The notes under the pieces are model-generated. The model ran no database searches, was not told where the DNA came from, and saw only the letters and a list, made by a program, of their open reading frames with translations. DNA of 64,000 nucleotides, from the IMG/VR virus record IMGVR_UViG_3300042868_009434; one strand, 5' to 3'. This DNA is from a virus (taxonomy: Duplodnaviria > Heunggongvirae > Uroviricota > Caudoviricetes). The translations under genes and the position numbers were made by a program. Of this stretch, positions 14,659 to 56,147 are shown in pieces (the first letter of the stretch is position 1; each line of letters opens with the position of its first letter).

Positions 14659-14674
14659 ACTTATAAATATAACT

Positions 14675-25114: not shown

Positions 25115-25115
25115 T

Positions 25116-29358: not shown

Positions 29359-29399
29359 TAACAAATTCAAAAAATATCAATTAAATACAAAAAAAATTG

Positions 29400-29474
29400 T
29401 GTCCTCGGCAGGCATCGAACCTGCATATCTCTCGGTTATGAGCCGAGCGCCTTCACCAATTTAGCTACAAGGAC
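29400..29474 (-). tRNA. tRNA-Met/Ile2 (anticodon CAT)
   Basis: Hand-folded: acceptor gtccttg/cgaggac, anticodon loop ctCATaa, T-arm gcaggttcgatgcctgc. Confidence 0.55.
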
Positions 29475-29564
29475 AAAAATTAGGTTTTGGTGTAAACACC
29501 CTACATGACTTTAACCTAAAAAGTACACTGAGTAATTTAAAACCCCCAGCGGTTTAATTGTGAC

Positions 29565-29792
29565 CTATTGGTGGTTCTTAATGTACCTACCAAATTTATC
29601 CACCCTCACAGAGAGTTTCTCCAATCTAAAGTTCCATTGTTTGAACTTTCCTAAGCCGGTTCTTAACCTTGCTTGTTTAATTGCAGATTCCTCTGCCTTT
29701 TCACGTCCTTCTTCTGTGGTTTCCACAAAAAAAGTGGGAGCCTGAACACCGTTTCTAACGGGAACTACTCTCCAAATTCTCAATTTCTGAGT
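29565..29792 (-). CDS. Hypothetical small basic protein
   Basis: ORF MTQKLRIWRVVPVRNG...; a weak S21-like pattern was not accepted. Confidence 0.25.
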   Translation of the reverse strand, partial: TQKLRIWRVVPVRNGVQAPTFFVETTEEGREKAEESAIKQARLRTGLGKFKQWNFRLEKLSVRVDKFGRYIKNHQ

Positions 29793-29985
29793 CATAATAC
29801 TTGAACTAATCAAGTACTACGAGGAGTTGGGTTTTTGGTTTTTCATATTGATAATTTACACATTTTCTAATTAAAAGAAATATCAAACATTTGGTGGTCT
29901 ATCACCTCACATTTTCAACGGGTCCAATTTTATGTGTGCCTCACGGGTTTACTTCTGCAATGTCGCTTTAATGTTTGGTATTTTG

Positions 29986-30065
29986 TATCCCCGGTGAGAG
30001 TCGAACTCACATGCCTGAGCAACAAGTCTTAAGCCTGTCGTGTATACCAGTTTCACCACGGGGAT
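29986..30065 (-). tRNA. tRNA-Leu (anticodon TAA), type II
   Basis: Acceptor atccccg/cggggat, anticodon arm acagg-cttaaga-cttgt, long variable arm, T-arm gtgagttcgactctcac. Confidence 0.6.
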
Positions 30066-30071
30066 ATTTTG

Positions 30072-30154
30072 AGCTTCCGATTGGATTCGAACCAACGTGA
30101 CCTTTCGGTTCCTGATTACAAATCAGGTGCAATCAACCTCTATGCGACGGAAGC
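30072..30154 (-). tRNA. Atypical type-II tRNA; anticodon loop uuUGUaa (nominal UGU/Thr) with a 14-nt variable arm
   Basis: Acceptor gcttccg/cggaagc, 3-bp D-stem, anticodon stem cctga/tcagg, T-arm gttggttcgaatccaat. Confidence 0.4.
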
Positions 30155-30421
30155 CTGTTTACATTATCACTTCGGCCACATTGGGAGAACCGCAGTTCCC
30201 ACGTTGTTTAAGGAGGTAGTTGGCGGTGTATCACACCGAGTTATGATAATGTATATTTTTACACATCCCTCAAGATGGGGATAACATTGCCCAGAGTACG
30301 ACCTCACAGACTATTATCATACTCAACAAACATAACACTTCTTGTAGTGTTGTAATGAATTTTTTTTCCCCTGTGTTCAATACACCGAATTACTTGTTTG
30401 CCTTTCTATGTGTAAATTTTG

Positions 30422-30496
30422 TACCCACGGTGAGAGTCGAACTCACAAAATCTTCTGAGCCTAAATCAGACGGCTTTCCCGTTTGCCCACGAGGGT
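30422..30496 (-). tRNA. Atypical tRNA-like gene, anticodon UAG with G37 and a short variable arm; shares its T-arm with tRNA-Leu(TAA)
   Basis: Acceptor accctcg/cgtgggt with one U-U mismatch, anticodon arm tctga-tttaggc-tcaga, T-arm gtgagttcgactctcac. Confidence 0.35.
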
Positions 30497-30498
30497 AA

Positions 30499-31167
30499 TT
30501 ATTTTTTTTCGTATGACTTAATCCATTTACGAATTGAATTGTCTGACACACCATATTTTCTACCTGTACCAACATAACCTAATTCACTAATCTCTTTGAT
30601 TAAAACATTATAATCAGGTCGACTAATTTTTTTAGATTTTTCAAATTTACAATCTAAACAAGTTATTGCCTTATCAGAAATTAAATTACCACAATCACAT
30701 TTTTTTGTTTTTTTTATTATAATTTCTTTAACATTTTTTCTACCTGAATAATTATCGGTAATTGAATGACAATTTGGACATAATATTTGTAAATTATTTA
30801 ATTGATTATTAAATCTATTTCCGTCTATATGATGTAATTCTAATGATATTTTATTTTCTAACCATTTATCTAACCCACAATTTTCACATCTATGTTCTTT
30901 AATCCCATCCTCAATTAATTTAACCCTTAATTTGTGTGAATTTATACTATCACAACTTTCAATGTAATCTAAAGCGGTTCTTCGTTTAGAATCTGTTTTT
31001 TTACCTCTTAATCCTTGATTTCCCGAATAATCTATTTCTAACTTTTTCAAATAACTCTCTAAAGTAGATGGTCGACAATTTAATACCTTACATATTGACG
31101 ATTTTGATTCGTTATTTTGAATCATAGTGATAATGTGTTCTTTTTTTTCTAATATGTCTATTCTCAT
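30499..31167 (-). CDS. HNH homing endonuclease
   Basis: The HNH segment CENCGLDKW...LHHIDGN...NLQILCPNCHS is present, along with additional Cys pairs, a zinc ribbon and an HTH-like C-terminus. It lies within the tRNA island. Confidence 0.8.
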   Translation of the reverse strand: MRIDILEKKEHIITMIQNNESKSSICKVLNCRPSTLESYLKKLEIDYSGNQGLRGKKTDSKRRTALDYIESCDSINSHKLRVKLIEDGIKEHRCENCGLDKWLENKISLELHHIDGNRFNNQLNNLQILCPNCHSITDNYSGRKNVKEIIIKKTKKCDCGNLISDKAITCLDCKFEKSKKISRPDYNVLIKEISELGYVGTGRKYGVSDNSIRKWIKSYEKK

Positions 31168-31239
31168 AATACTTTCTTTATATTATAAATATAACATACT
31201 TGTTAAAAAACTAAACAACAAGTATAACATTTTTATTTG

Positions 31240-31311
31240 TACCCTCAATAGGACTCGAACCTATATCAAAACATTAGAAGTGTCTTATTCTATCCCTTGA
31301 ACTATGAAGGC
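31240..31311 (-). tRNA. tRNA-Arg (anticodon TCT)
   Basis: Anticodon arm agaca-cttctaa-tgttt, T-arm ataggttcgagtcctat, acceptor gccttca/tgagggt with G-U pairs. Confidence 0.55.
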
Positions 31312-31318
31312 GGTTTGG

Positions 31319-31390
31319 AGCAGATAGAGAGAATCGAACTCTCGTTTCAAGATTGGAAGTCTGGAGTAATAACCATTATACGATATCTGC
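31319..31390 (-). tRNA. tRNA-Gly (anticodon TCC)
   Basis: Acceptor gcagata/tatctgc, anticodon loop cttccaa, T-arm gagagttcgattctctc. Confidence 0.55.
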
Positions 31391-31470
31391 AGATTTGGGT
31401 AGAATCAGACGCGTTCTGTCTACCGGGACCTCGTCGTTGACTTTCATCAGAGCGGACCAAGACACATTTG
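31391..31470. other. Unresolved 80-nt structured spacer between tRNA-Gly and tRNA-Met
   Basis: Contains the hairpin ggtaga..tctacc and CUGAUGA-like and gcggacc segments. No tRNA fold was found by eye. Confidence 0.2.
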
Positions 31471-31542
31471 TAGCGGGAGAAGGATTCGAACCTCCGACCT
31501 AGAGGTTATGAGCCTCCCGAGCTACCTCTGCTCTATCCCGCA
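31471..31542 (-). tRNA. tRNA-Met (anticodon CAT), second copy; U1-U72 mismatch suggests a possible initiator
   Basis: D-arm gagc-agaggta-gctc, anticodon arm ggagg-ctcataa-cctct, T-arm ggaggttcgaatccttc. Confidence 0.55.
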
Positions 31543-31548
31543 ATTTGT

Positions 31549-31618
31549 TGCAAATCTCAGGAATTGAACCTGATTAAGTCGGCTTATGAGACCGATGAGA
31601 TACCTTACCTCCCGACTG
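31549..31618 (-). pseudogene. tRNA-like element with a CAT anticodon arm and an intact T-arm but a non-pairing acceptor stem
   Basis: D-arm gag..ctc, anticodon arm tcggt-ctcataa-gccga and T-arm tcaggttcaattcctga are present. The acceptor 5-prime strand cagtcgg does not pair with the 3-prime strand gatttgc. Confidence 0.3.
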
Positions 31619-31632
31619 CTGTGTATTATTTA

Positions 31633-31707
31633 TGGCGGTCTATGAGAGAATCGAACTCTCATCTCTACCGTGACAGGGTAGCATCCTAGCCGTTGAACGA
31701 ATAGACC
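31633..31707 (-). tRNA. tRNA-Asp (anticodon GTC) with encoded CCA
   Basis: Acceptor ggtctat/atagacc-g-CCA, anticodon arm ctacc-ctgtcac-ggtag, T-arm gagagttcgattctctc. Confidence 0.7.
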
Positions 31708-31806
31708 AAAATTTCAATTCAAAGGTGACAATCCTATAACAATTGAAGGAGAAAGAACCGTGTTTCCCGGGTAGTGACTTCCCGTATTCTGTCTTTCTGT
31801 TTTTTG

Positions 31807-31878
31807 TGGAGCTATGGAGAATCGAACTCCAATTTATGATTTGCAAAACCATAGTAATTGCCGTTATACTATAACCCC
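31807..31878 (-). tRNA. tRNA-Ala (anticodon TGC) with G3-U70
   Basis: Acceptor ggggtta/tagctcc includes the G3·U70 identity pair. Anticodon arm atggt-tttgcaa-atcat. Confidence 0.7.
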
Positions 31879-31884
31879 TTCTTG

Positions 31885-31956
31885 TACTGCCACGGAGAAT
31901 CGAACTCCGATTTTATGGATGAAAACCATATGTCCTGACCGTTAGACGATGGCAGC
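31885..31956 (-). tRNA. tRNA-Glu (anticodon TTC)
   Basis: Acceptor gctgcca/tggcagt, anticodon arm tatgg-ttttcat-ccata, T-arm cggagttcgattctccg. Confidence 0.65.
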
Positions 31957-32012
31957 GTGTGTATTACCAATATTTCAAATAACTTGTTTCTGTTTGATGG
32001 TACAAAGATAAT
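31957..32012 (-). promoter_or_regulatory. Promoter-like repeat copy A immediately upstream of the tRNA-Glu 5-prime end
   Basis: The minus strand reads ..cTTTGTaCcaTCAAAcAgAAacaaGTTATTTGAAATATTGGTAAtacacac before the tRNA. A 20-nt segment is identical to copy B at 36207-36266. A Bacteroidota-like -33 TTTG and a -7 TAtTTG element are present. Confidence 0.45.
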
Positions 32013-32434
32013 ACTTTATTTTAATCTACCAAACTTTATCCTTTTTCTTCTTCAGTTTCTTCTACATCAACTAAAATGTATTCTGACCCTAAGATTGGTG
32101 AATAAACCAATTCTAATTTTTGATACGTTGTATCGTTTGTTTCTTGTCCTTCCATCTTTAAATTTGTTTCGACAAAGGTAATCATTTTTTTCAAACTACC
32201 AAACATAATGTAAAAAAAAAATCCACCTCTTTTGGAGATGGATTTTATTATATTATTAATTACTTAACTATACATCATACCATCTCCGTCCAAGTTGTAT
32301 CTCTACCCTCGGCTCCTATCGTAAGTAATAATGTATTTAAAGTTTGCATTTGTTGTGTTATTGTAATTTTCTAATAAATATAGTCCTTTTTATAAAAGTG
32401 TCAAGTATTGGTAAGATTTATTTTTAATTTTGGG

Positions 32435-32520
32435 ATAATGATAGGATTCGAACCTATAACCTATACCGACCACATTGTCGGCTGCACGTCCAATTGTGCT
32501 TCAAAATCCATATTTCTTCA
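32435..32520 (-). other. Unresolved tRNA-like element; a canonical T-arm is present but the body is not foldable by eye
   Basis: T-arm ataggttcgaatcctat, with a hairpin ccgac-aatgtg-gtcgg that resembles a variable arm. A possible 5-prime acceptor lies about 60 nt further upstream. Confidence 0.2.
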
Positions 32521-32581
32521 GGAGAGACCCTCAAGGGATAACCATAACGGAATTACCCTTGACTCACTCTCCGTCTTCTTG

Positions 32582-32652
32582 CACACCGCCAAGGACTCGA
32601 ACCCTGAACTTTGAGGTTGGAACTCAAAATGATACCATTTCACCAACGATGT
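32582..32652 (-). tRNA. tRNA-Trp (anticodon CCA)
   Basis: Anticodon arm ttgag-ttccaac-ctcaa, T-arm cagggttcgagtccttg, acceptor acatcgt/gcggtgt with G-U pairs. Confidence 0.55.
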
Positions 32653-32744
32653 ATGTATAAAAACACCCGACCTGACCTGCCAGATAGTACGTGTCGTAGC
32701 GCTTTCGTTACGTAGCGGATGTTTTAATTTTTAAGATTATTACT

Positions 32745-32838
32745 ACGGGACTCGAACCCGTATCCACTTAACTAATATAAGCCTGTTATCCCAAGGTGGT
32801 ATTCATTCCCACTTACACCAAGCAATAATCTTTAAATT
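32745..32838 (-). other. Unresolved elongated tRNA-like element next to an HNH gene
   Basis: T-arm acgggttcgagtcccgt. An acceptor pairing tattgct/agtaata is possible, but the anticodon arm is not evident. Confidence 0.2.
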
Positions 32839-32875
32839 CCGTACAAAAGTACAAAATGATTTTTAATCCACCAAA

Positions 32876-33382
32876 TTAAAAAAACAAATAATCATTCCAT
32901 TCTTCCGGAATATAATGAACTTGTTTAATCATCATCAAATAGTGTGGTCGTCTTGGTTGTGGAATTTCTTTACCATATTCTTCCAATGTCAAATTGGACT
33001 TCTCACTATTACATTTCTTACAAGCGGTTACCAAATTATCCCAAGCGTCTTTACCTCCTTTAGACTGCGGTATTACGTGGTCTAATGTCAATGTCTTACG
33101 ATTTTCACATCCACAATAAACACAGGAGTAATTATCTCTACGATAAACATTCTCTCTACTTAAAGGAACTTTATGAATCGGTTGATTCACATATTTGAAA
33201 ACCCTTATGATTGAAGGTTTCTTAATATCTAATTCAGGATTGATTAGATTAAATGATTCCGGATGTTCGGCAACGACACTCGCATTACCCTTATAAGTTA
33301 TTACAAAAGCCCTTTCAGTGTTTATGATAGACCTTGGCATATAACTTGAATCCAAAACCAACGTTTTTCCGTACTTACTCAC
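32876..33382 (-). CDS. HNH homing endonuclease
   Basis: CVYCGCENRKTLTLDHVIPQSKGGKDAWDNLVTACKKCNSEKSN. Confidence 0.8.
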   Translation of the reverse strand: MSKYGKTLVLDSSYMPRSIINTERAFVITYKGNASVVAEHPESFNLINPELDIKKPSIIRVFKYVNQPIHKVPLSRENVYRRDNYSCVYCGCENRKTLTLDHVIPQSKGGKDAWDNLVTACKKCNSEKSNLTLEEYGKEIPQPRRPHYLMMIKQVHYIPEEWNDYLFF

Positions 33383-33416
33383 GACTTTTGATTTATTAGT
33401 TAAACATTTTTTTTTG

Positions 33417-33491
33417 TGACTCCGGTGGGACTCGAACCCACGATTTTCTCATTAAAAGTGAGAAGCCTTAATCCATCTTGGCCACGAAGTC
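33417..33491 (-). tRNA. tRNA-Lys (anticodon TTT)
   Basis: Acceptor gacttcg/cggagtc, anticodon arm tctca-cttttaa-tgaga, T-arm gtgggttcgagtcccac. Confidence 0.6.
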
Positions 33492-33574
33492 AATTTGAGC
33501 TCATTCTACCTTAACATTGGGCTCAAAATCTCACATATTTGAGCTTAATAATTATGGTTTGTGAGCCACATTTG

Positions 33575-33648
33575 TCGGTACTATAGGAATCGAACCTATA
33601 ACCTCTCACGTATCAGGCGAGTGCTCTAACCAATTGAGCTAAGTACCG
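33575..33648 (-). tRNA. tRNA-Ile (anticodon GAT)
   Basis: D-arm gctc-aattggtta-gagc, anticodon arm ctcgc-ctgatac-gtgag, T-arm ataggttcgattcctat. Confidence 0.6.
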
Positions 33649-33653
33649 GGTCG

Positions 33654-33726
33654 TCGGGTAGACTGGACTCGAACCAGCGTTCTCTACATCCCAAATGTAG
33701 CGGATTACCAACTTTCCTACTACCCG
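33654..33726 (-). tRNA. tRNA-Pro (anticodon TGG)
   Basis: Acceptor cgggtag/ctacccg, anticodon arm ctaca-tttggga-tgtag with G37. Confidence 0.65.
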
Positions 33727-33730
33727 TATT

Positions 33731-33931
33731 TTATTTCACTTCTCGATAAACATTAATTTTATTACCATTTTTAGTGATAAAAGAACCTGTTTCATACCAA
33801 AGTTTTTCTTGTTCCTCTCTTTTTTCAATAATAACCTTAACTCGGTTTATTGTTTCTTGATTAGGACTTGTGTCTATTGTATAAGGAATATTGTTAATTT
33901 CCATATACTTAATGTATTCATTTGTTTCCAT
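33731..33931 (-). CDS. Hypothetical small protein inside the tRNA island
   Basis: 66-aa ORF. Confidence 0.3.
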   Translation of the reverse strand: METNEYIKYMEINNIPYTIDTSPNQETINRVKVIIEKREEQEKLWYETGSFITKNGNKINVYREVK

Positions 33932-33944
33932 ATTCCTTTTTTTG

Positions 33945-34031
33945 CGGAGAACAAGGGAATCGAACCCTCACCGGTTTTACCCGGAACATCTTAGCAGGAT
34001 GCCACTACAAACCAATATTAGACTATTCTCC
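33945..34031 (-). tRNA. tRNA-Ser (anticodon GCT), type II
   Basis: Anticodon arm gcatc-ctgctaa-gatgt, variable arm ccgg-gtaaaa-ccgg, acceptor ggagaat/gttctcc. Confidence 0.55.
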
Positions 34032-34107
34032 ATTTTGTAGGATATCGCTTAACCTACGATGTTGATATCATTACACACCTTTGATATTACTATCAGCGAT
34101 TTTTTTG

Positions 34108-34179
34108 TAGTCTCTGAGGGAATCAAACCCCCACTCTAATATCCGTAGTATTATGTGCTATTCGTTACACCAAGAGACC
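34108..34179 (-). tRNA. tRNA-Arg (anticodon ACG)
   Basis: Acceptor ggtctct/agagact, anticodon arm taata-ctacgga-tatta, T-arm gggggtttgattccctc. Confidence 0.6.
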
Positions 34180-34626
34180 AATTTGAGGTTGAGAACTCCT
34201 CGTGTTGTGCAAATATAGACATAAACCCTTTCAAAATTTATAATCTCACCCGACTATTCCATTCCCCTCTCACGGGAACAACACATTAATTACTAATAAT
34301 ATCTTTATGTAAATCGGGATATTGCATAACCGTATCTAACATTTTTATTTACAAAGATATTATAATTTTACTTCCATTGAGTCTTTCGGTTGTATTTCCA
34401 AGTTTTATAACTTCTATACTTTACTGAAGAATGACCTTTTTTGAAGTTTAAACCTTCATCCCAATATGGTGGAAATTCCTCACGTAACCAAATTCTTCTG
34501 TAATCTTTGGAACAAGTTGCCTTGTTCAATTTCATTCTGTTTGTGTTTACACTCATAATCTCTGAGTCTGTTGTTTAGCAGACCTCAAAGATTATCCAAT
34601 ACTTTTTTCATAATATTTTTTTAATC

Positions 34627-34845
34627 TTATTTATGTTTTTCAACAAGATAGTTAATGTAATCGTCATATCCATCATCGTCTTCTTTTGGTTGGAAATCTT
34701 TATTTAATCGTTCCTCAAGTAACTCATAGGCGATTTTCATAACTTCTTGTTCTTTACCTTTTAATTGGGGGTTAGGAAGTAAAACGAATAATCCGACCAA
34801 ACCTTCTACCAACATTTTTTCACTTTCACTATACTGTCTTTTCAT
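34627..34845 (-). CDS. Hypothetical small protein inside the tRNA island
   Basis: 72-aa ORF. Confidence 0.3.
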   Translation of the reverse strand: MKRQYSESEKMLVEGLVGLFVLLPNPQLKGKEQEVMKIAYELLEERLNKDFQPKEDDDGYDDYINYLVEKHK

Positions 34846-34860
34846 AATATTTTAAATTTG

Positions 34861-34933
34861 GGTGACTAAGGAGAATCGAACTCCCATTTACAGAACCACA
34901 ATCTATCGTGTTAACCGTTACACTATAGCCACC
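34861..34933 (-). tRNA. tRNA-His (anticodon GTG) with G-1:C73
   Basis: An extra 5-prime G pairs with discriminator C. Acceptor gtggcta/tagtcac, D-stem gtgt/acac, anticodon arm ataga-ttgtggt-tctgt. Confidence 0.65.
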
Positions 34934-35040
34934 ATGTATAAACCTAATAATGTGGGTTTGAGATGTACCCTTTTCAACCCGCTTTCACACCCATCACTCC
35001 TAAAGAGCTGTCAGTATCGGATACCACATTTAAGGTTTTG

Positions 35041-35112
35041 TACTCTTGGAAGGAATTGAACCTTCTTTTCATTCTTATCAGGAATGTGTGCTAACCATTC
35101 TACTACAAGAGC
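35041..35112 (-). tRNA. tRNA with anticodon GAT (second Ile-like copy)
   Basis: Acceptor gctcttg/caagagt, anticodon arm cattc-ctgataa-gaatg, T-arm gaaggttcaattccttc. Confidence 0.45.
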
Positions 35113-35189
35113 AATTTTACCCCACTTCACCGGGTTAATGGACCGGCTGCCATATGGGAGTGGGGGTTTCCCGTTATATCGGGACTCCG

Positions 35190-35262
35190 TGGTACCGGTT
35201 GGAATCGAACCAACGACACACAGATTTTCAGTCTGTTGCTCTACCAACTGAGCTACGATACC
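35190..35262 (-). tRNA. tRNA-Phe (anticodon GAA)
   Basis: D-arm gctcagttggtagagc, anticodon arm acaga-ctgaaaa-tctgt, and variable plus T-arm gtgtcgttggttcgattccaac as in bacterial tRNA-Phe. Confidence 0.7.
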
Positions 35263-35322
35263 GGCTCCTGTATACCTTTGCAAAGGTGGTGGTAGTACAG
35301 ACACTATGATTCCACTATTCTG

Positions 35323-35394
35323 CTCTCCCGGGTGGACTCGAACCACCATAAATTGATTAACAGTCAACCGTAATAACCTTTATACGACAGAAGA
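35323..35394 (-). tRNA. tRNA-Asn (anticodon GTT)
   Basis: Anticodon arm gttga-ctgttaa-tcaat, T-arm ggtggttcgagtccacc. Confidence 0.6.
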
Positions 35395-35401
35395 ATTTTT
35401 G

Positions 35402-35474
35402 TGGGTCCTGTAGGAATCGAACCTACTCCTCTAGTTCTTCAGACTAGCGTACGCACCAGCTATACAAAAGACCC
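35402..35474 (-). tRNA. tRNA with anticodon GAA and G37 (second Phe-like copy, atypical)
   Basis: Acceptor gggtctt/aggaccc, anticodon arm ctagt-ctgaaga-actag, T-arm gtaggttcgattcctac. Confidence 0.4.
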
Positions 35475-35618
35475 AATAATGATAATGTTGGAGTACCCAT
35501 CTCGCTCCAATCTTAACTGCTTAATCGTAGTTTTACGAGGCCTCGGCAGGGGGTGCAGAATTCTTGAACCTATCTTGGATTGTCGACATCCGAGAGATAG
35601 AGAAAACCATTATCATAG

Positions 35619-35699
35619 TGGGCAGTAGTGGACTCGAACCACTCCCAAAAGGACCAGATTTACAGTCTGGCTGCCGTATCCGAACGACTTTTACTACCC
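35619..35699 (-). tRNA. tRNA-Tyr (anticodon GTA), type II
   Basis: Anticodon arm ccaga-ctgtaaa-tctgg matches the bacterial Tyr loop. Extended variable region; acceptor gggtagt/actgccc. Confidence 0.6.
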
Positions 35700-35705
35700 A
35701 ATTTG

Positions 35706-35776
35706 TACCTCGTAGTGGAATCGAACCACTTCCCTTTGCATGTAAAACAAATACGCTTCCGTTACGCCAACAAGGT
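35706..35776 (-). tRNA. tRNA-Val (anticodon TAC)
   Basis: Acceptor accttgt/acgaggt, anticodon arm tttgt-tttacat-gcaaa, T-arm agtggttcgattccact. Confidence 0.6.
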
Positions 35777-35837
35777 AATTTTGATTTTTTTAACTTTATA
35801 CTCAAACTTAAAGTTTAAAAACCTAACAACATAAAAC

Positions 35838-35965
35838 ATCAGTACCGAGAAATGGTATCGAGCCATTCTATAGTCGGATATGAGCCGTCTATGGTCACCT
35901 GACCCCTCGGCATTTTGGTGGACATAGATTCATCATCTATTCTTGGGTTTCCACCGAACCCGTTG
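35838..35965. other. Structured non-coding region with nested hairpins inside the tRNA island
   Basis: Hairpins ggtgg...ccacc, aatgg-tatcgag-ccatt and cacc..ggtg are present with no clean tRNA fold. Confidence 0.2.
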
Positions 35966-36037
35966 AGGTGATAGTAGGAATCGAACCCACCTAGCTGAGT
36001 TTGCAATCCAGCGCCTAAACCACTCGACCATATCACC
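35966..36037 (-). tRNA. tRNA-Cys (anticodon GCA)
   Basis: Acceptor ggtgata/tatcacc, anticodon loop ttgcaaa as in the bacterial Cys loop, T-arm gtgggttcgattcctac. Confidence 0.55.
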
Positions 36038-36044
36038 ATTTTTG

Positions 36045-36116
36045 TTACCCCTGAGAGAATCGAACTCCCCCCGCATGGACCAAAACCATGTGTACTAACC
36101 GATATACGAAGGGGCA
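36045..36116 (-). tRNA. tRNA-Gln (anticodon TTG)
   Basis: Anticodon arm catgg-ttttggt-ccatg, acceptor tgcccct/aggggta. Confidence 0.6.
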
Positions 36117-36122
36117 AAATTG

Positions 36123-36206
36123 AGGAAGACATGGGAATCGAACCCACAACGGTGTTACCCGCTACTTGTTTTCAAGACAAGCTCCTCGTCCATTCGGCCG
36201 CCTTCC
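36123..36206 (-). tRNA. tRNA-Ser (anticodon TGA), type II
   Basis: Anticodon arm cttgt-cttgaaa-acaag, long variable arm, acceptor ggaaggc/gtcttcc. Confidence 0.55.
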
Positions 36207-38527: not shown

Positions 38528-38719
38528 AATAATTTAATTTAATTTTGACAAAAATATAAAATAAAATTGACACTCCAAACTTTTTTGAAGATATTTATTA
38601 GTATGATTATGACCAATTAATAATTGGGGCTTTTGGAAATCATACAGATGTGAGAATGATGGTGTTGTAAGGCTCGGAAAAACCTTAAACCATAAACAAT
38701 CAAATAACAAATTAATATT

Positions 38720-38745
38720 AAAGGGGTTCTTACCCCTTTTTTTAT
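38720..38745 (+). terminator. Hairpin followed by a T-run
   Basis: aaggggttcttacccctt followed by T7. Confidence 0.35.
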
Positions 38746-39136: not shown

Positions 39137-40801
39137 ATGAGAGTATTAGGATTTTCGGTAGGACACGATAAAGGTGCGGTTATCATAGAAAATGGAAAAG
39201 TTGTGGTGGGTATCACCCAAGAAAGATTATCTAGGATAAAACACGATGGTGCATATCAAGGGGGATTAATTCCTTTTGAATCCATAAACTATTGTTTAAA
39301 TTATTTGAGTATTACTCATAGGGATATAGACTTATTTGTTTATAGTACCACTGAAATAACCGATGATGTTGATTTTCAGTTTTTTAACAAATATCATGAT
39401 TTAAAGAGGGAAAAACTTAAATTTTTACCTCACCATTTGGCACACGCATACTCAACATTTTTTAGTTCAGGTTTTGAAGAATCTGCAATAATCGTTGCGG
39501 ACGCATCCGGAAGTATTTTAAGTTATAAAAACAAATTACACGAATGGTATGATGTTGATAGAACTGATTTAGACCCCGAAGAAGATTGGACCGAAGGAAT
39601 TTCATTATTTCATTTTACAAAAAACGGATATAATGAAGTTTATAAAAAATGGATAAAATATCCTGTACCTATTGACACCAATGAAGGTGTTTCCGTTGGA
39701 ACTGTTTATTCAACAGGTTCTTTACAATTAATTTATGAACCAAATGAACACACTTGGCCCGCAGGTAAATTAATGGGATTGGCGTCATACGCTGATAAAT
39801 CAATTGTGGATGAGGCACCTGAATACGCTCAAGAATTAGAGAATGATATATTCATACCAAATAATACAATTTACCCAAAAGTAACTTGGCAATCCGATTT
39901 TTTCTCAAGAGCGTGTGTTGCCGGAATTTACCAAAAAGAACAAGAAAGGTCTTCTTTAATTTTAGCTAAAATTGCAAAAAACTTAACAAAATCTTCAAAT
40001 GTTTGTGTTGCCGGTGGGTCATTCTTAAATTGTAATTCAAATGAGGTTATATTAAAATCAGGATTATACGAAAATTCTTATTTCTTGGCGCCAAGTGATG
40101 ATAGTGGAATACCGTTAGGATGTGCTTGGTATGCGTATCAACAATTGATAGATATTACATCAGTTGAACCTATGTCACCTTATTTTGGTAAAACATATTC
40201 AAAACAAGAAATCATAACGGCAATTAATAACTACCCTGGATTAAATGTAGTTGAACACACTAAAGAAAGTGATTTAATTAAAGAAGTTACACATTGGTTA
40301 ACCCAAAATAGAGTTATTGGATGGTTCCAAGGTGGTTCAGAAATTGGACCGAGAGCATTAGGTAATCGTTCAATATTGGCATCCCCAATTCAAAAATGGA
40401 TGTCAGGTCATATTAATGGAGATATCAAACATAGAGAATGGTATCGTCCGTTTGCCCCGGCAGTTTTATTTGAACATCAATCTGAAGTCTTTGAATCAGA
40501 TGTTTATTCACCTCATATGTTGGTGACCACATCAGTTAAAGAAGAATGGAGAGAGAAAATACCTGCAGTTACTCACATTGATTATTCTGCTAGACATCAA
40601 TCCGTAACCAAAGAAAATAACCCAAAATTTTATTCACTAATCAATTCGTTTTATGATGAAACCGGTGTTCCTGTTTTACTTAACACAAGTTTTAATGGTC
40701 CACACGAACCAATTGTTGAAACTCCTGAAGAAGCAATTAAAACATTTATTTCAAACAAACTTGACATATTAGTAATCGATAATTTTATTATAAGTAGATA
40801 A
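39137..40801 (+). CDS. NodU/CmcH/TobZ-family O-carbamoyltransferase
   Basis: N-terminal Kae1-like domain MRVLGFSVGHDKGAVIIENGKVVVGITQERLSRIKHDG. An LPHHLAHAYS metal motif and a C-terminal YrdC-like region are present. Confidence 0.75.
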   Translation: MRVLGFSVGHDKGAVIIENGKVVVGITQERLSRIKHDGAYQGGLIPFESINYCLNYLSITHRDIDLFVYSTTEITDDVDFQFFNKYHDLKREKLKFLPHHLAHAYSTFFSSGFEESAIIVADASGSILSYKNKLHEWYDVDRTDLDPEEDWTEGISLFHFTKNGYNEVYKKWIKYPVPIDTNEGVSVGTVYSTGSLQLIYEPNEHTWPAGKLMGLASYADKSIVDEAPEYAQELENDIFIPNNTIYPKVTWQSDFFSRACVAGIYQKEQERSSLILAKIAKNLTKSSNVCVAGGSFLNCNSNEVILKSGLYENSYFLAPSDDSGIPLGCAWYAYQQLIDITSVEPMSPYFGKTYSKQEIITAINNYPGLNVVEHTKESDLIKEVTHWLTQNRVIGWFQGGSEIGPRALGNRSILASPIQKWMSGHINGDIKHREWYRPFAPAVLFEHQSEVFESDVYSPHMLVTTSVKEEWREKIPAVTHIDYSARHQSVTKENNPKFYSLINSFYDETGVPVLLNTSFNGPHEPIVETPEEAIKTFISNKLDILVIDNFIISR

Positions 40802-40804
40802 TTT

Positions 40805-42394
40805 ATGAGTTCAATTTATGGATTCTTTACCGGGTCGCATAGTCCATCTATTGCATTAATTAGAGACGGTAAAATAACATTTTGTATCGAGGAAGAGAGA
40901 TTAACCCGAATAAAATCCGGTGATAATTACGATATTAATTGTGAATTATCATGTATTGAGGCGGAAAAATATACAGGTCTAAAAATAACAGATGCCGATT
41001 ACCGAATCTTTGCAAATCCAACACCGGACGAATTTGCCCGTAAAATTACCAACAATAATTATGAAAAAGTTAGTCACCATACCGCACACGCATATGGGGC
41101 TTACTACACCAGTGGAATGAAAGGTAAATCAATTACCATCACATACGATGGTGGAGGTGAAAGTACCGTAATGAAAGTTTATCTATGTAATAATGGAAAA
41201 ATGACTTTAATCCAAAGTCATCCATTGGCTTCATTTGGTAGTCTTTCTCACGTTTGGGGATTCAGTACATCCTCGATGAGAGGATATGACGAACATGGTG
41301 AGGGAATATGGAAAATGTGTAAAGATGAAGGTAAATTAATGGGTATGGGTCCAAATGGTCATTACGATGAGACAATTTATAATATGTTGTCCACTGTAAT
41401 TAATTATAAGGATTTTAGATTTTACCCATCCGGGTCATCAAGTAAAACCATGTTTTTAGGTGACATGATGAAATCCAATGGATATTTCGATACTCAAGAA
41501 AAAATGGAAATCTATTCATTTAATTTACAAAAACGAACAGAAGACCTATTCCTAAAATTTATTGACGACTTACATAATTTATATCCTGAATATAAGCAAT
41601 TATGCTTATCCGGAGGACTATTTGCCAATGTAAAATTAAATCAAAAACTCAACGAATTAGAATGGATTGACGAAATTTATATTTACCCACCAATGGGTGA
41701 TGAAGGTTTGTCATTAGGAGCCTGTATCTATAAAGCTGTCGAATTGGGTGAGATTACTGAACCAATTGAACTAACTAATGTTTATTTTGGGAAGTCATAC
41801 AATAATGATGAAATACAGGAAATCTCAAAAGATTATAGTTTTAAGAGAGAACCATATAATCCGAAAGATATCGCAAATTATATCAATCAAGGAGGAATCG
41901 TTGGATGGTTTCAAAATGGTTCCGAATTCGGTCCAAGGTCTTTAGGAGCTCGAAGTATTTTAGTTAGACCAACCGAAATCTCAACACACAAATTATTAAA
42001 TAAAAGATTAAATCGATATGATACAATGCCATTTGCACCAATTATATTAGAAGAATCATTTGACAATATTTTTATACCATCAAAATCAAAATACACATCT
42101 GAGTTTATGACATTATGTTACAACACAAAAGATGAGTGGATTGATAAGATACCTGCAGTTATACAAAAGTCAGATAAAACTGCTCGACCCCAAATAGTTA
42201 AAAGGTCTAAAACACCTAAATTTTGGGAAATATTAAATGAATATTATATGTTATCAGGAATACCATTATTATTGAATACATCATTTAATTCACACAATCA
42301 ACCAATCATTGAAAACCCGGAACAAGCATTTGAGTCATTAAAACTTGGGGTCATTGATAAATTAATAATAGAAGATTATGTTTATTTCCCTTAA
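40805..42394 (+). CDS. NodU/CmcH-family carbamoyltransferase, tandem paralog
   Basis: IYGFFTGSHSPSIALIRDGKITFCIEEERLTRIKSGD, SHHTAHAYGAYY; same architecture as the preceding gene. Confidence 0.7.
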   Translation: MSSIYGFFTGSHSPSIALIRDGKITFCIEEERLTRIKSGDNYDINCELSCIEAEKYTGLKITDADYRIFANPTPDEFARKITNNNYEKVSHHTAHAYGAYYTSGMKGKSITITYDGGGESTVMKVYLCNNGKMTLIQSHPLASFGSLSHVWGFSTSSMRGYDEHGEGIWKMCKDEGKLMGMGPNGHYDETIYNMLSTVINYKDFRFYPSGSSSKTMFLGDMMKSNGYFDTQEKMEIYSFNLQKRTEDLFLKFIDDLHNLYPEYKQLCLSGGLFANVKLNQKLNELEWIDEIYIYPPMGDEGLSLGACIYKAVELGEITEPIELTNVYFGKSYNNDEIQEISKDYSFKREPYNPKDIANYINQGGIVGWFQNGSEFGPRSLGARSILVRPTEISTHKLLNKRLNRYDTMPFAPIILEESFDNIFIPSKSKYTSEFMTLCYNTKDEWIDKIPAVIQKSDKTARPQIVKRSKTPKFWEILNEYYMLSGIPLLLNTSFNSHNQPIIENPEQAFESLKLGVIDKLIIEDYVYFP

Positions 42395-42410
42395 TGAAGA
42401 AAAAATAGTG

Positions 42411-43007
42411 ATGAATTTTACACCATCACCTTATCTACGAATATCAGGTCCTGACGAACTCTATTATGTTGAATTGAGAGAGTATCCAAAAAATGATGAC
42501 CAATCTCTTTATGTTGAAGGTCGTAGGATATCCGGTAATGGTGGTGAGTTTCATGTCCCAATTGAATTTTATTTTGATTTTGAAATTTCAGTTTCAAAAT
42601 ACATTCCTGAATATGGATTAAAAAAAATATTCACACATCGTTTTAATGATTATGGTAAACAAGTATTATTTAATTTAGATACTAACGACCATAATGAATG
42701 TTTATTATGGGTATCTCGAATTGAGGAATATCAAAAAGTACACGGGTGTAAGATTTTTTTAAATACTAAATTTGACGACATTAATACAAAGTATGCTTCA
42801 TATTATCAGGTGGATGGGATTGATTATTATAAAACATATAATATCGGTAGATTCCCTAAAAATAGTCATGATTGGAGAACAATTGACCCAAGACAAGAAG
42901 GGGTTATTTGGTACGGGAATTGGAAAACATTTTGGTCATATCAACATCCAAGATTATACTCCAACTTATCAAGCAAAGAAATTATTGATGATATTTTGGC
43001 ACTTTAA
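42411..43007 (+). CDS. Hypothetical protein
   Basis: ORF 42378-43007 with an internal Met start. Confidence 0.4.
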   Translation: MNFTPSPYLRISGPDELYYVELREYPKNDDQSLYVEGRRISGNGGEFHVPIEFYFDFEISVSKYIPEYGLKKIFTHRFNDYGKQVLFNLDTNDHNECLLWVSRIEEYQKVHGCKIFLNTKFDDINTKYASYYQVDGIDYYKTYNIGRFPKNSHDWRTIDPRQEGVIWYGNWKTFWSYQHPRLYSNLSSKEIIDDILAL

Positions 43008-43042
43008 TTATTTTTGTATATCTTTGTTGAAAATTAAAACAT

Positions 43043-43789
43043 ATGATGAACGTAGGACAAGAATTTCAAAGTTATTACACAAAACATTTAGGTAAACCAT
43101 CTTTGGATTTACACAACTTCAACAACCACATTCAAAATTCAATGACTCCTTACATTTTGGAGGAAAGAGAAATGAGAGTAACCCAAATGGATATTTTCTC
43201 TCGTTTAATGATGGATAGAATATTATGGGCTTCAGGTCCGGTTGACGACAGAATGGGTGATATCATCCAATCACAACTTATTTTCTTAGACAACTTAGAT
43301 AAGAAAAAAGATATTAATTTATATCTACAAACTCCGGGTGGAAGTGTTTTAAGTGGATTAGGTATTAGAGACACGATGAACTTTATTAACGCGGATGTTG
43401 CGACCACTAATATTGGTATGTGTGCATCTATGGGTTCAGTATTATTATCTTCAGGGACAAAAGGTAAGAGGTCATCTTTAATTTTCTCAAAAGTAATGAC
43501 TCACATGGTTTCTCACGGAACACAAGGTAATGTTCAAGACACAAGAATTAATCAACTTGAGGCCGAAAAATACAATTATTTGTTATTTAAAATATTGGCG
43601 GAGAATTGTGGTAAGACATTTGAAGAAATGTTAGAATCATCAAGAAATGATAAATGGTTCAATTCTGATGAAGCGTTACAATTTGGTCTAATTGATAAAA
43701 TTGTTGGTGTGGAGAAAAATCAATCAATGTCAGATATGATGGTTGGATTTGACGATTATTATGAAAAAGAAATTCTTAAAAGAAAATAA
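43043..43789 (+). CDS. clpP: ClpP-family serine protease
   Basis: Aligns to E. coli ClpP: the Ser motif GMCASMGS, the His segment VMTHMVSHGTQGN and the Asp segment SSRNDKWF are conserved. Confidence 0.85.
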   Translation: MMNVGQEFQSYYTKHLGKPSLDLHNFNNHIQNSMTPYILEEREMRVTQMDIFSRLMMDRILWASGPVDDRMGDIIQSQLIFLDNLDKKKDINLYLQTPGGSVLSGLGIRDTMNFINADVATTNIGMCASMGSVLLSSGTKGKRSSLIFSKVMTHMVSHGTQGNVQDTRINQLEAEKYNYLLFKILAENCGKTFEEMLESSRNDKWFNSDEALQFGLIDKIVGVEKNQSMSDMMVGFDDYYEKEILKRK

Positions 43790-49845: not shown

Positions 49846-50427
49846 ATGAGATTCAATTCATTAACTATCGACGACTTTTATGCCGACCCAATGCAGGTTA
49901 GAGAATTTGCACTTAAACAAGAATTTAAAGTTAGAGGTAATTATCCGGGACAAAGAACCGTATCGTTTTTAAACGACCCAATTAAAAAGAAATTAAGAGA
50001 TATATTATACCCATTTGCTGGTGAAATCACAGATTGGGGAGGAGAATACACAGGTTCTTTCCAATATACCACAGCTGCGGACAGGTCATGGATTCATGCT
50101 GACTCAACAACTGATTGGGCAGCGGTTTGTTATTTAACACCTGACGCACCCGTAACTGCAGGGACAGGTATTTTTAGACATAAAGAAACCGGATGGATGA
50201 ATTTTGATTATAAAAGACAAAATGACCCTGAGTATATGAAACAATCTCCTCCGGGACATGATATGCAGGATTATACAAAATGGGAAATGGTGGACCGAGT
50301 TGGTAATGTGTTTAATCGACTAATAATGTATAGAGCCGACAACTATCACGTATCTTTAGATTATTTTGGGAAAGACCTTAACGACGGAAGATTATTTCAA
50401 GTATTCTTTTTCAATACAGAACGTTAA
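49846..50427 (+). CDS. Putative 2OG-Fe(II) oxygenase-superfamily protein
   Basis: A facial-triad-like arrangement: HxD in SWIHADSTTDW and a second His in YRADNYHVS. Confidence 0.35.
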   Translation: MRFNSLTIDDFYADPMQVREFALKQEFKVRGNYPGQRTVSFLNDPIKKKLRDILYPFAGEITDWGGEYTGSFQYTTAADRSWIHADSTTDWAAVCYLTPDAPVTAGTGIFRHKETGWMNFDYKRQNDPEYMKQSPPGHDMQDYTKWEMVDRVGNVFNRLIMYRADNYHVSLDYFGKDLNDGRLFQVFFFNTER

Positions 50428-50858
50428 CATTTATGGTTTAAGATTAAATCCGGATTAAGTTCTCCAATAATTTTTAAAACTCCATCAATACAATAACAAA
50501 GCTCCAAAGTTGTTATTGTTTTTTCAAACTTTTTAAATCCAATAACAACAGGGTGAAAACAAGTATTTTTACTTTTAGGGGTAAAGTTAAAATTTGGGTT
50601 CCATAAATTACTATATGGAATCCCTAATTCATGTAAAAAATCTATTGAGTCTTCGGTATACGACTCAAAATATGGTACACCTATTTCTTTTAACAGTATA
50701 TTCAGATGTAATTTACTGACTTTATTATTACCCTCTTCAATTGAACGAAGAGTTAAATCTCCATTGTTTTGATTTTTTTGTAAAAAATGCCAAAGAAAGA
50801 TATCGTTTTCTTTGGCAATCCTATAAAAATCTTTATAAGAAACTTTCACACTATCCAT
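50424..50858 (-). CDS. Hypothetical protein
   Basis: 144-aa ORF. Confidence 0.4.
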   Translation of the reverse strand: MDSVKVSYKDFYRIAKENDIFLWHFLQKNQNNGDLTLRSIEEGNNKVSKLHLNILLKEIGVPYFESYTEDSIDFLHELGIPYSNLWNPNFNFTPKSKNTCFHPVVIGFKKFEKTITTLELCYCIDGVLKIIGELNPDLILNHKC

Positions 50859-51457
50859 TATCTAAAATTTGCACCACATAACCAAGTCACTAATGACTTT
50901 CTTGTACCCGAAGTTAATGGGGTCACCCTATGTAATAAAAATGACGGGAAAAAACAAATTGTCCCTAACCCTTTAGGGACTTCAATAATATTACCACCAG
51001 GATTCATTTGTAGAATACCTCCTTCATATTCTTCAGGTGATGATAATTGTAAAACACAAGATAATTTTCTATTTGAAATGCCTGGTCCTAAATCAACATG
51101 CCAATCATAGTGACCACCATCACCGTAGTACTTAGTAAATTGTAACAGGTCTTGATAATCCCAAATATCAAAATTCCACATTTCTTTATTTGCAATTTTT
51201 GCATAATTAGCAATTTTCTCATATATCCATGAAGTTTCTTCTGTTTCATTAATCCAAGAAATATCACTTACTCGATATTCTGAAACACCTACTTCATTAT
51301 CATGACCAACAGTGGTTCCGGGTGTTATTGGTAAATTTTCACCAATTTCAATTATTTTAAGAATTTCTTCTTGTGTGAACGCGTTAGTAAAATAATAATA
51401 ATTCATGTGATTAATATTAGTCCTATGTTCCGGTAAAAAATGATTTGTTAATGACAT
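50858..51457 (-). CDS. Prolyl-4-hydroxylase-like 2OG-Fe(II) oxygenase (PKHD type)
   Basis: HVDLG (HxD), RKLSCVLQL, EGGILQ and FFPSFLLHRVTPLTSGTRKSLVTW. The start is taken at the internal Met. Confidence 0.7.
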   Translation of the reverse strand: MSLTNHFLPEHRTNINHMNYYYFTNAFTQEEILKIIEIGENLPITPGTTVGHDNEVGVSEYRVSDISWINETEETSWIYEKIANYAKIANKEMWNFDIWDYQDLLQFTKYYGDGGHYDWHVDLGPGISNRKLSCVLQLSSPEEYEGGILQMNPGGNIIEVPKGLGTICFFPSFLLHRVTPLTSGTRKSLVTWLCGANFR

Positions 51458-51514
51458 TTGTGTTTTTTTTATTAAATTAATTATAATTAATATTATTAAT
51501 AATTTCAACACAAT

Positions 51515-52768
51515 ATGAGAAAACATAAAATAATTGATACCATTTTTTTTTACGATGAAATAGAAATGTTGTATTTTAGGTTATCAGAGTTAGATGAGTA
51601 TGTCGATGAATTCGTTATTATGGAATGTGAAATGGATTTTAAAGGTAATCCTAAACCATTAAATTATCTTGAAAATATTGATTTATTTAAAAAATGGAAG
51701 GATAAAATCACCTATTTACCAACTCCAAGTATAACGTTTAATGAAATCAACACAATTTACGAATCAATATCATTCACAAAAAAATTCAATAAAACAAATG
51801 ATAAGATTGTTGGTAAAGACGACATTAGATTTTTTCAAATAATTACACTTATTGGAATTTTATTAGAAAAACCGATAGGTCTTGATGATTTAATTTTAAT
51901 TTCAGATGTTGATGAAATCCCGGACTTATCAAAAGTATCATCATTTAAATCCCAACTTAAATTTGGTGTGATTGTTTTAAGACAAACTAATTTTACGTGG
52001 ACAACAAAATATTTTGATATAATACCTAATATGGGAACAATTGGATTTCAATTTAACCGATTAGTAACTAACCCTGAAATTGTTTATAAAGCATATTTTA
52101 ACAAATCATTACCTTCCAATTTGGACTTTGAGATTATTGATAATGGTTATCATTTATCTCATTTTTATGATTTAGAAAAAACAATATCCAAATTAAAATT
52201 ACTTCACGATGAAAATTGTGAATATGATTTAAGTGAGTTAGATAGTAAGGTAAGATATTCATATGAGAATTTAACATCAATCAAAACCAATTCTAATGAA
52301 AAAATTTATAATTTAATTGATTATAATGGTGAATTACCTAAAAATATTGAACTATTAAAGAATCAAACTATTGGAAGGTTGTGGGACAAAAAAAGTTTAA
52401 TTGTACTTAATCATATTGGAGAATACAATGATTTTGAGATGGAGGAAATGTTTGACAATATTTGTGTAATTAATTTTACTGATAACACACAACTACCATA
52501 CGAAACCGAATTGTCCGAAAAAACAACTTATTATAACATATTAAAACCCTTTGAGGTTTATTATAAAACAGATGATGTTTTGGATTTAAAGACTTTTCAA
52601 AAAATATTTTGTATTAATGACGTAAAAAAAATTGTTCGAGAATTATTACCAATAGACCAAGATTTAATTGTTTTTTCTAATAGTGAAAATCCAACAAATA
52701 ACGTCGTACACCCGTGGAAAGAAGTTAAAAATAATTTTATTTACGATTTAGTTAAAGATATTCTATAA
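51515..52768 (+). CDS. GT17-like glycosyltransferase (putative)
   Basis: N-terminal IDTIFFYDEIEMLYFRLSELDEYVDEFVIMECEMDFKGNPKPL resembles the Glyco_transf_17 core. Confidence 0.5.
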   Translation: MRKHKIIDTIFFYDEIEMLYFRLSELDEYVDEFVIMECEMDFKGNPKPLNYLENIDLFKKWKDKITYLPTPSITFNEINTIYESISFTKKFNKTNDKIVGKDDIRFFQIITLIGILLEKPIGLDDLILISDVDEIPDLSKVSSFKSQLKFGVIVLRQTNFTWTTKYFDIIPNMGTIGFQFNRLVTNPEIVYKAYFNKSLPSNLDFEIIDNGYHLSHFYDLEKTISKLKLLHDENCEYDLSELDSKVRYSYENLTSIKTNSNEKIYNLIDYNGELPKNIELLKNQTIGRLWDKKSLIVLNHIGEYNDFEMEEMFDNICVINFTDNTQLPYETELSEKTTYYNILKPFEVYYKTDDVLDLKTFQKIFCINDVKKIVRELLPIDQDLIVFSNSENPTNNVVHPWKEVKNNFIYDLVKDIL

Positions 52769-56104: not shown

Positions 56105-56138
56105 AAAAAATCCTCATTTATTGAGGATTTTTTTTTAT
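56105..56138 (+). terminator. Rho-independent terminator
   Basis: aatcctcatttattgaggatt followed by T9. Confidence 0.6.
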
Positions 56139-56147
56139 CTTTGCATT

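Follow-up and report, generated by a model that had tools for sequence, protein, structure and literature searches.

The 64,000-nucleotide stretch of Caudoviricetes DNA analyzed here (IMG/VR record IMGVR_UViG_3300042868_009434; hereafter the window) contains a cassette of five plus-strand genes, flanked by minus-strand blocks, that encodes two adjacent carbamoyltransferases, CT1 and CT2, a short open reading frame (ORF) resembling half of a TibC-like glycosyltransferase (ORF3), and the protease subunit ClpP. Our analysis, which covered ~74 kb of a larger genome (the window and 10 kb beyond it), makes it rather probable that CT1 and CT2 are glycan O-carbamoyltransferases, the most likely acceptor being a sugar in a glycan or glycoconjugate and not a nucleobase. 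A carbamoylated sugar had been the second option of the initial annotation of this DNA, and it is the one favored by the glycan gene context described below; such a sugar might sit on a virion protein, on the host envelope or on a precursor.

Both proteins scored above the Pfam gathering cut-offs for the Kae1-like N domain (Carbam_trans_N, PF02543; 1e-24 and 87.7 bits for CT1, 3e-26 and 93.3 bits for CT2) and for the YrdC-like C domain (Carbam_trans_C, PF16861; 5.6e-67 and 225 bits for CT1, 5.6e-48 and 163 bits for CT2), which is the two-domain architecture that they have in common with TobZ, NodU, NolO, CmcH, NovN and GdmN. They also matched PHROG 1601 end to end (CT1, 2e-104; CT2, 6e-88). 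The PDB matches of CT1 included 7xb6 (2e-60), TobZ (3e-56), NovN and GdmN, and the E-values of CT1 and CT2 against TobZ-type structures ranged from 1e-52 to 1e-60, yet identity was at most ~30%. Inspection of the alignment columns showed that the motifs of the metal and nucleotide sites are intact in CT1 (HHLAH, ADASG, SDDSG, GPRALGNRS, KHREWYRPFAP and NTSFN), and the corresponding motifs are intact in CT2 (HHTAH, YDGGG, MGDEG, GPRSLGARS, MPFAP and NTSFN), so that the HxxxH + Asp + Asp metal site of the TobZ-type family and the GPRALGxRS, PFAP and NTSFN motifs of its carbamoyl-AMP-forming domain are all retained. The initial annotation had described two adjacent NodU/CmcH-type carbamoyltransferases with a Kae1-like N-domain, and this description is borne out by the presence of both Pfam domains and of the motifs that it quoted, VGHDKGAVII...ITQERLSRIKHDG and HHLAH, in the proteins. 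We assign CT1 and CT2 to the TobZ/NodU/CmcH-type O-carbamoyltransferases, their activity being predicted from sequence. Since they are only 28% identical to each other, they appear to be old paralogs and not the result of a recent duplication.

Carbamoyltransferases of this type had been called unusual in phages. However, tblastn detected homologs in 142 phage records, mainly of cyanomyophages, the pelagiphage HTVC008M and some Bacteroides phages, PHROG 1601 exists as a phage protein family, and carbamoyltransferases were already listed among cyanophage genes in 2010. Some phages carry two to four copies per genome, in S-SSM7 at four places, and multi-copy sets also occur in S-CAM1 and P-SSM5; the homolog list for CT2 added only close metagenomic relatives. 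The so-called Nol-like carbamoyltransferases of cyanomyophages and HTVC008M belong to the same PHROG as CT1 and CT2 and are likewise encoded by T4-like phages with aquatic hosts. In contrast, CT1 and CT2 are only 27-33% identical to these enzymes (CT1 ~30% to those of S-SSM7 and HTVC008M), and the host of their phage is probably a member of the Bacteroidota, unlike the hosts of the cyanomyophages and the pelagiphage. Unlike the characterized TobZ-type members, moreover, CT1 and CT2 are encoded by a lytic T4-like phage, and the coupling of CT2 to a TibC-like half glycosyltransferase is a feature without counterpart in any of those members.

The genes of the cassette are separated, in order, by gaps of 19, 3, -17 and 35 nt, and no terminator-like site was found on the plus strand inside it (Table 1). 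Co-transcription of the carbamoyltransferase genes with clpP, which the initial annotation had asserted, is therefore plausible from the single strand, the tight gaps and the lack of such a site; the tight same-strand block itself is confirmed. The previously given coordinates of CT1, CT2, ClpP and ThyA, a thymidylate synthase homolog discussed below, proved correct, but ORF3, located between CT2 and clpP, had been overlooked. All 48 IMG/VR loci that have a standalone ORF3 (41-92% identity) show the order small ORF-CT1-CT2-ORF3-ClpP (one locus, L048, is truncated and its small ORF is missing), and an identical CT1 protein was found on several metagenome contigs with the gene order unchanged. 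The small acidic ORF had no match in Pfam, NCBIfam or PHROG; in 47 of 50 related loci a homolog of it immediately precedes CT1, the exceptions being the truncated L048 and the distant L068/L069.

Table 1. Features of the window, with the cassette genes given first.
Feature	Position	Strand	Remarks
Small acidic ORF, 111 aa	38782..39117	+	First gene of the same-strand block
CT1, predicted TobZ/NodU-type O-carbamoyltransferase, 554 aa	39137..40801	+	Pfam, PHROG, PDB, motifs
CT2, predicted second O-carbamoyltransferase, 529 aa	40805..42394	+	Pfam, motifs; clade neighboring the TibC-like module
ORF3, TibC-like half glycosyltransferase, 209 aa	42378..43007	+	Overlaps the end of CT2 by 17 nt
ClpP proteolytic subunit, 248 aa	43043..43789	+	Pfam CLP_protease; last gene of the block
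ThyA, 397 aa	58198..59391	+	Canonical thymidylate synthase (from sequence features) with two lineage-specific insertions
Glycan/protein-hydroxylation type genes	14609..15911, 24545..25577, 49846..52768		Scattered
UVR-domain ORF	15940..16317	-	Adjoins the Clp ATPase gene
Clp ATPase, 671 aa	16490..18505	+	Two AAA domains (AAA, AAA_2, ClpB_D2-small)
Transfer-messenger RNA (tmRNA) gene	20661..21057	+	Rfam RF00023, 69 bits (gathering score 47); no ARAGORN call
Array of 26-27 tRNA genes	29399..36206	-	Most amino acids covered
HNH endonuclease ORF	~32876..33382		Inside the tRNA array
Promoter-like site and hairpin	38567..38745	+	TTGACA, 17 nt, GATATT; ~130 nt before the hairpin
Hairpin with T run, terminator-like	38720..38745		Upstream of the small acidic ORF
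RNA_lig_T4_1, T4 RNA ligase 1 homolog	56121..57227	+	~1 kb upstream of ThyA

ORF3 had no match in Pfam (GT9 included) or PHROG, and tblastn against GenBank phages gave none. Its link to TibC is based on a fold search and on a weak NCBIfam match to the TibC/Aah autotransporter heptosyltransferases (4e-9, profile positions 53-174), while a profile search of PDB sequences did not retrieve TibC (4rap) and returned only a chance match to EscC (E 0.18). In the paper on the TibC structure, residues 1-97 are described as a beta-barrel needed for substrate glycosylation and residues 98-195 as the N-lobe of the GT-B fold, followed by a C-lobe (218-406) that binds ADP-heptose and carries an iron finger. 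Given these boundaries and the length of ORF3, which ends after the N-lobe, ORF3 consists of the TibC-like barrel and the GT-B N-lobe only. Hence the C-lobe of the bacterial autotransporter heptosyltransferases (the GT9 domain binding the ADP-heptose donor), their beta-hairpin thumb and their four-Cys iron finger are all without counterpart, whereas ORF3 has a conserved Trp-rich C-terminal motif of its own (GNWKTFWSYQHPR). From this domain content, ORF3 alone should not be able to act as a glycosyltransferase, and we regard it as a derived half and not as a member of that enzyme family. Among 1.84 billion representative proteins, a profile search retrieved 121 relatives; in the long ones a GT9 domain comes after the ORF3-like module, and often there is also an FkbM methyltransferase or GT4 domain. 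TibC-type enzymes glycosylate beta-helical proteins.

The strongest indication of a common function of CT2 and ORF3 comes from distant loci (L014, L015/L016, L017 and L072 from the lookup, L068/L069 from the IMG/VR scan). Beside every distant ORF3-like module with a profile E of <=5e-13 whose context was read, a CT2-type carbamoyltransferase was adjacent or within ~2 kb. CT2 is 41-58% identical to the carbamoyltransferases next to the ORF3-like modules in L014, L015, L017, L069 and L072, those of full length sharing only 24-28% identity with CT1; by this comparison they are all CT2-type. Neither ClpP nor CT1 occurs in these distant loci. The fusion loci, L014, L015/L016 and L017, encode ORF3-like-GT9 fusion proteins with the carbamoyltransferase gene directly beside the fusion gene or one small methyltransferase gene away (Methyltransf_24 beside the carbamoyltransferase in L015/L016 and L017, the latter having GT4/GT1 in addition). 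In L017, which also carries Gp23, the pair follows the major capsid gene at a distance of ~5 kb and comes after the gene of a protein that matches collagen faintly. In L072 the carbamoyltransferase gene overlaps a standalone ORF3-like gene, as it does in the window, L010 and L011, and is followed by GT2, GT29, DHDPS, DAHP_synth_1, methyltransferase and CTP_transf_3 (CMP-sugar-type cytidylyltransferase) genes, while in L068/L069 the pair lies within a set of radical SAM, sugar epimerase, PfkB kinase, dehydrogenase and thiamine pyrophosphate (TPP) enzyme genes. A more distant full GT9 protein, P0170 (L073), had no carbamoyltransferase nearby. The pairing of CT2-type enzymes with ORF3-like modules, often with overlapping genes, inside sets of sugar biosynthesis and tailoring genes therefore indicates a sugar hydroxyl as the acceptor.

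On the viral contig of L069 (1144-11531), the genes are, by predicted product, radical SAM/SPASM, the CT2-type carbamoyltransferase, the ORF3-like protein, DUF6445, sugar epimerase, PfkB kinase, Zn-dehydrogenase (ADH) and TPP enzyme, a set which looks, from its predicted products, like a complete pathway for an unusual sugar with carbamoylation; the contig also encodes a Kae1-like-only protein, with Carbam_trans_N and without the C domain. Glycan and protein-hydroxylation type genes are scattered in the window as well, namely Asp_Arg_Hydrox, Sulfotransfer_2 (weak), HAD_SAK_2, dTDP_sugar_isom, DUF6445, 2OG-FeII_Oxy_3 and Glyco_transf_17 (GT17). Of these, DUF6445, the 2-oxoglutarate (2OG) oxygenase and GT17 keep their position downstream of the cassette in related phages, and DUF6445 also adjoins the ORF3-like gene in L069. 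In HTVC008M the neighbors of the carbamoyltransferase gene encode a glycosyltransferase, a methyltransferase, a UDP-glucose dehydrogenase and a 2OG oxygenase, a context that, together with the scattered glycan-type genes of the window, supports a glycan acceptor.

In the mechanism that we propose, CT1 and CT2 would be ATP- and carbamoyl-phosphate-dependent O-carbamoyltransferases in which the YrdC-like C domain makes carbamoyl-AMP and the Kae1-like N domain hands the carbamoyl group to the acceptor hydroxyl. By analogy with TibC, ORF3 is the probable acceptor-recognition partner of CT2 and would recognize or present the acceptor. NodU and NolO carbamoylate different positions on Nod factors, and the target of CT1 is, by the same kind of analogy, probably another position or a different sugar. 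A more far-reaching proposal, to which we give only tentative credence, is that a CT2-type carbamoyltransferase and a TibC-like module lacking the C-lobe are the two components of a glycan-tailoring system that is widespread among T4-like phages of aquatic habitats, with the degenerate glycosyltransferase serving as a non-catalytic acceptor adaptor and a virion-protein glycan as the target.

Several points weigh against a glycan acceptor. We know of no acceptor or experiment on record for any phage carbamoyltransferase of the CT1/CT2 type, the adaptor role of ORF3 is drawn by analogy, and a CT2-ORF3 complex is hypothetical. The synteny within the close phage group could reflect mere general collinearity, so that only the distant loci carry weight, and these are few (six loci or locus pairs). 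A complete glycosyltransferase gene adjoining the cassette was not found in the window, the GT17 gene being 8.5 kb off. In addition, a validated metavirome enzyme acting on 5-hydroxymethylcytosine (5hmC) resembles the CT2 clade slightly more than it does CT1 (with L015, up to 109 bits), and sequence alone would leave room for a nucleic-acid acceptor.

Instead of a polymer-bound glycan, the substrate of the carbamoyltransferases might also be a free small molecule, such as a metabolite resembling aminoglycosides, cephems or Nod factors, or the nucleotide sugar pool, with ORF3 being unrelated. To our knowledge all biochemically characterized close relatives (TobZ, NovN, GdmN, NodU and CmcH) act on small molecules, and the sugar-precursor biosynthesis enzymes encoded in L069 and L072 would also fit such a role. 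However, the conserved partner ORF3 has its origin in a GT-B enzyme that glycosylates proteins, relatives of ORF3 occur as fusions with glycosyltransferases, secondary-metabolite scaffold genes are absent from the window, and a secreted metabolite would be of no obvious use to a lytic T4-like phage. We therefore consider this explanation unlikely. Modification of RNA or tRNA, including the large tRNA set of the phage itself, is highly improbable. The fold is common to the N6-threonylcarbamoyladenosine (t6A) machinery, with weak or faint TsaD matches on related proteins of the family, the cassette region lies near the 26-27 tRNA genes and the tmRNA gene, and the 5hmC enzyme is active on RNA in vitro. 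Nevertheless, the Carbam_trans scores are far above the TsaD scores, the conserved neighbors are glycan genes and not RNA-modification genes, and cyanophage carbamoyltransferases exist without such tRNA arrays. An auxiliary metabolic gene function in pyrimidine synthesis, which one paper ascribes to a homolog from a cyanophage (PMC9146016), deserves practically no credit. It has in its favor only the shared word 'carbamoyltransferase', while CT1 and CT2 match NodU/CmcH/TobZ-type domains only, and we reject it as a mix-up with aspartate carbamoyltransferase that the domain assignment refutes. The first step of pyrimidine synthesis is catalyzed by aspartate carbamoyltransferase, an enzyme of a different fold and family.

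The remaining alternative, close to what the initial annotation had proposed, is that a hydroxymethyl-pyrimidine in the phage DNA, 5-hydroxymethyluracil (5hmU) or 5hmC, or a sugar on it, is O-carbamoylated by CT1 and/or CT2. A precedent exists in the phage-derived carbamoyltransferase from a metavirome that converts 5hmC in DNA, in RNA and as 5-hydroxymethyl-dCTP to 5-carbamoyloxymethylcytosine and has no action on 5-hydroxymethyl-dUTP (5hmdUTP; PMC8670742; MetaGPA, eLife 2021). O-Carbamoylation of a hydroxymethyl-pyrimidine, put forward as a new modification pathway, was accordingly already known. The 5hmC enzyme belongs to the same superfamily as CT1 and CT2, uses the same cofactors, carbamoyl phosphate and ATP, and likewise comes from a phage, and the CT2 clade has its MPFAP (R-x-x-x-MPFAP) and T-x-RPQ variants; its marginally greater closeness to that clade, the ThyA homolog of the genome and the fact that the larger part of that genome, T4-like relatives reaching 150-320 kb, is beyond the window also speak for this idea. 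However, CT1 and CT2 are only 22-23% identical to the validated enzyme (55-67 bits) and, at the three discriminating positions named for it, TobZ W408, G421 and R423 (PMC8670742), both have Trp/Gly/Arg, whereas the 5hmC enzyme has Ile/Cys/Thr. Likewise, the 5hmC enzyme co-occurs with Asp177-type ThyA homologs, PRA-PH and dCMP deaminases (PMC8670742), and we found this arrangement in L071 (IMG/VR UViG_3300050496_000100, 6001-9835), where a carbamoyltransferase that is 39% identical to the validated enzyme (338 bits) and has Cys/Thr at TobZ 421/423 stands in a row with PRA-PH, an AAA_18 kinase, an Asp-type ThyA homolog ('FTNDAF') and a dCMP deaminase. None of these partners (PRA-PH, kinase, Asp-type ThyA or dCMP deaminase) was found in the window or the 10 kb beyond it, and the validated enzyme is inactive on 5hmdUTP. 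When tested, the defining features of the 5hmC system, that is its branch, its signature residues and its gene neighbors, were not found for CT1 and CT2. Near the L071 row there are also genes for an SNF2 helicase and a DNA ligase.

Furthermore, the ThyA homolog of the window is not expected to provide the hydroxymethylated substrate that such a DNA modification would need. The initial annotation had left open whether it is a thymidylate synthase or a deoxyuridine monophosphate (dUMP) hydroxymethylase, and only the former option is upheld. It scored above NCBIfam equivalog cut-offs, with 331.1 bits for NF002496 (cut-off 325) and 324 bits for TIGR03284 (cut-off 108), and its best PDB matches are genuine bacterial thymidylate synthases (3e-71). 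Compared with E. coli ThyA, the reference sequence of which was checked for length and key positions, it has kept R21, E58, W80, Y94, R126, R127, C146, H147, Q165, R166, S167, D169, N177, H207 and Y209, as well as the HPxIKAPL tail at the C-terminus, by which the active site is closed; only W83 is not conserved or ambiguous. The Asn of FNIAS, said to be retained, is thereby confirmed, in contrast to the Asp-type motif of the L071 homolog. SPO1 gp29, a dUMP hydroxymethylase, is without the R21 loop, W80, H147, R127 and the tail, departures from thymidylate synthase that the window ThyA does not have, and the two proteins align at only 25.8 bits (BLASTP, E 0.002). Of the large insertions and the extension previously noted in ThyA, the insertions are real (~200-241 and ~307-350) and are common to the ThyA of Flavobacterium phage immuto, which is 58% identical over its full length, while the supposed extension is not, as the C-terminus aligns with the canonical end. 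From these features ThyA is a canonical thymidylate synthase, predicted to make thymidine monophosphate (dTMP). It is not linked to the cassette either; it lies 14.4 kb from the carbamoyltransferase genes, with genes on both strands between, and was within 6 kb of the cassette in none of the 50 related loci. With an ordinary ThyA, and with carbamoyltransferases that differ from the 5hmC enzyme in sequence, signature residues and neighborhood, the supposed route from a ThyA-made hydroxymethyl-pyrimidine to its O-carbamoylated form is not supported, and we hold carbamoylation of the phage DNA to be quite improbable. QueD- and QueE-like 7-deazaguanine genes (L020, 7116-8551) lie near the ThyA gene of phage immuto, which, judged by ThyA, is the most closely related cultured phage; the window showed no Que genes, and tblastn gave no carbamoyltransferase match in phage immuto.

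The last gene of the cassette, clpP, probably is functionally untied to the carbamoyltransferases that we interpret as glycan-modifying and merely a co-transcribed neighbor. Its product matched Pfam CLP_protease (1e-50, 172 bits), was below the NCBIfam equivalog cut-offs, and has an intact Ser-His-Asp triad in alignment with S. pneumoniae ClpP (1y7o) and an N-terminal extension of ~30 aa. ClpP as a member of the carbamoylation pathway was considered and rejected, since the CT2/ORF3-like pair occurs without it in all distant loci (it is absent beside the pair in L015, L017, L069 and L072) and the phage encodes a Clp ATPase elsewhere. More plausibly, ClpP belongs with this Clp ATPase and the tmRNA gene, and the three may constitute a Clp proteolysis and trans-translation set of the phage's own. 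In phage immuto, an McsA-like gene is annotated beside ThyA.

Among other features of the surroundings, the ~250-nt gap upstream of the cassette contains the promoter-like site and the strong hairpin, which could represent a small RNA or the terminator of the upstream minus-strand gene; the promoter scan showed no enrichment over shuffles, and Bacteroidota promoters were outside its coverage. A PHROG scan of ten neighboring ORFs was uninformative as to the five large minus-strand genes that lie downstream of the cassette. A Band_7 protein and a metallophosphoesterase are encoded near the RNA ligase 1 homolog. The window, with a GC content of ~32%, encodes the markers of a T4-like myovirus, namely Portal_T4, Gp23, Peptidase_S77 (the T4 prohead protease family) and the large terminase, and megablast of the cassette against GenBank phages gave no match and no close DNA relative. 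Because its ThyA is closest to that of Flavobacterium phage immuto and a protein with a type-IX secretion sorting domain is encoded just beyond the window end, a host of the Flavobacterium type within the Bacteroidota is likely.

In summary, because ThyA is an ordinary thymidylate synthase, the sequence gives no basis for predicting a new base in the phage DNA, and a false lead is removed. Of continuing interest is that a known enzyme family has a widespread, uncharacterized variant whose partner is unusual. In T4-like phages of marine and fresh waters, carbamoyltransferases recur as 'auxiliary' genes, for which a substrate is known only in the case of the 5hmC enzyme, and the DNA-modifying type can be recognized by a simple test, that is the Cys/Thr signature together with neighboring PRA-PH, kinase, Asp-type ThyA and deaminase genes. 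The constant pairing of one large carbamoyltransferase clade with a TibC-derived acceptor-type module in glycan gene sets offers a concrete entry point to its function and, if the proposed two-component system is real, CT2 and the TibC-like module would represent a new kind of phage particle decoration.

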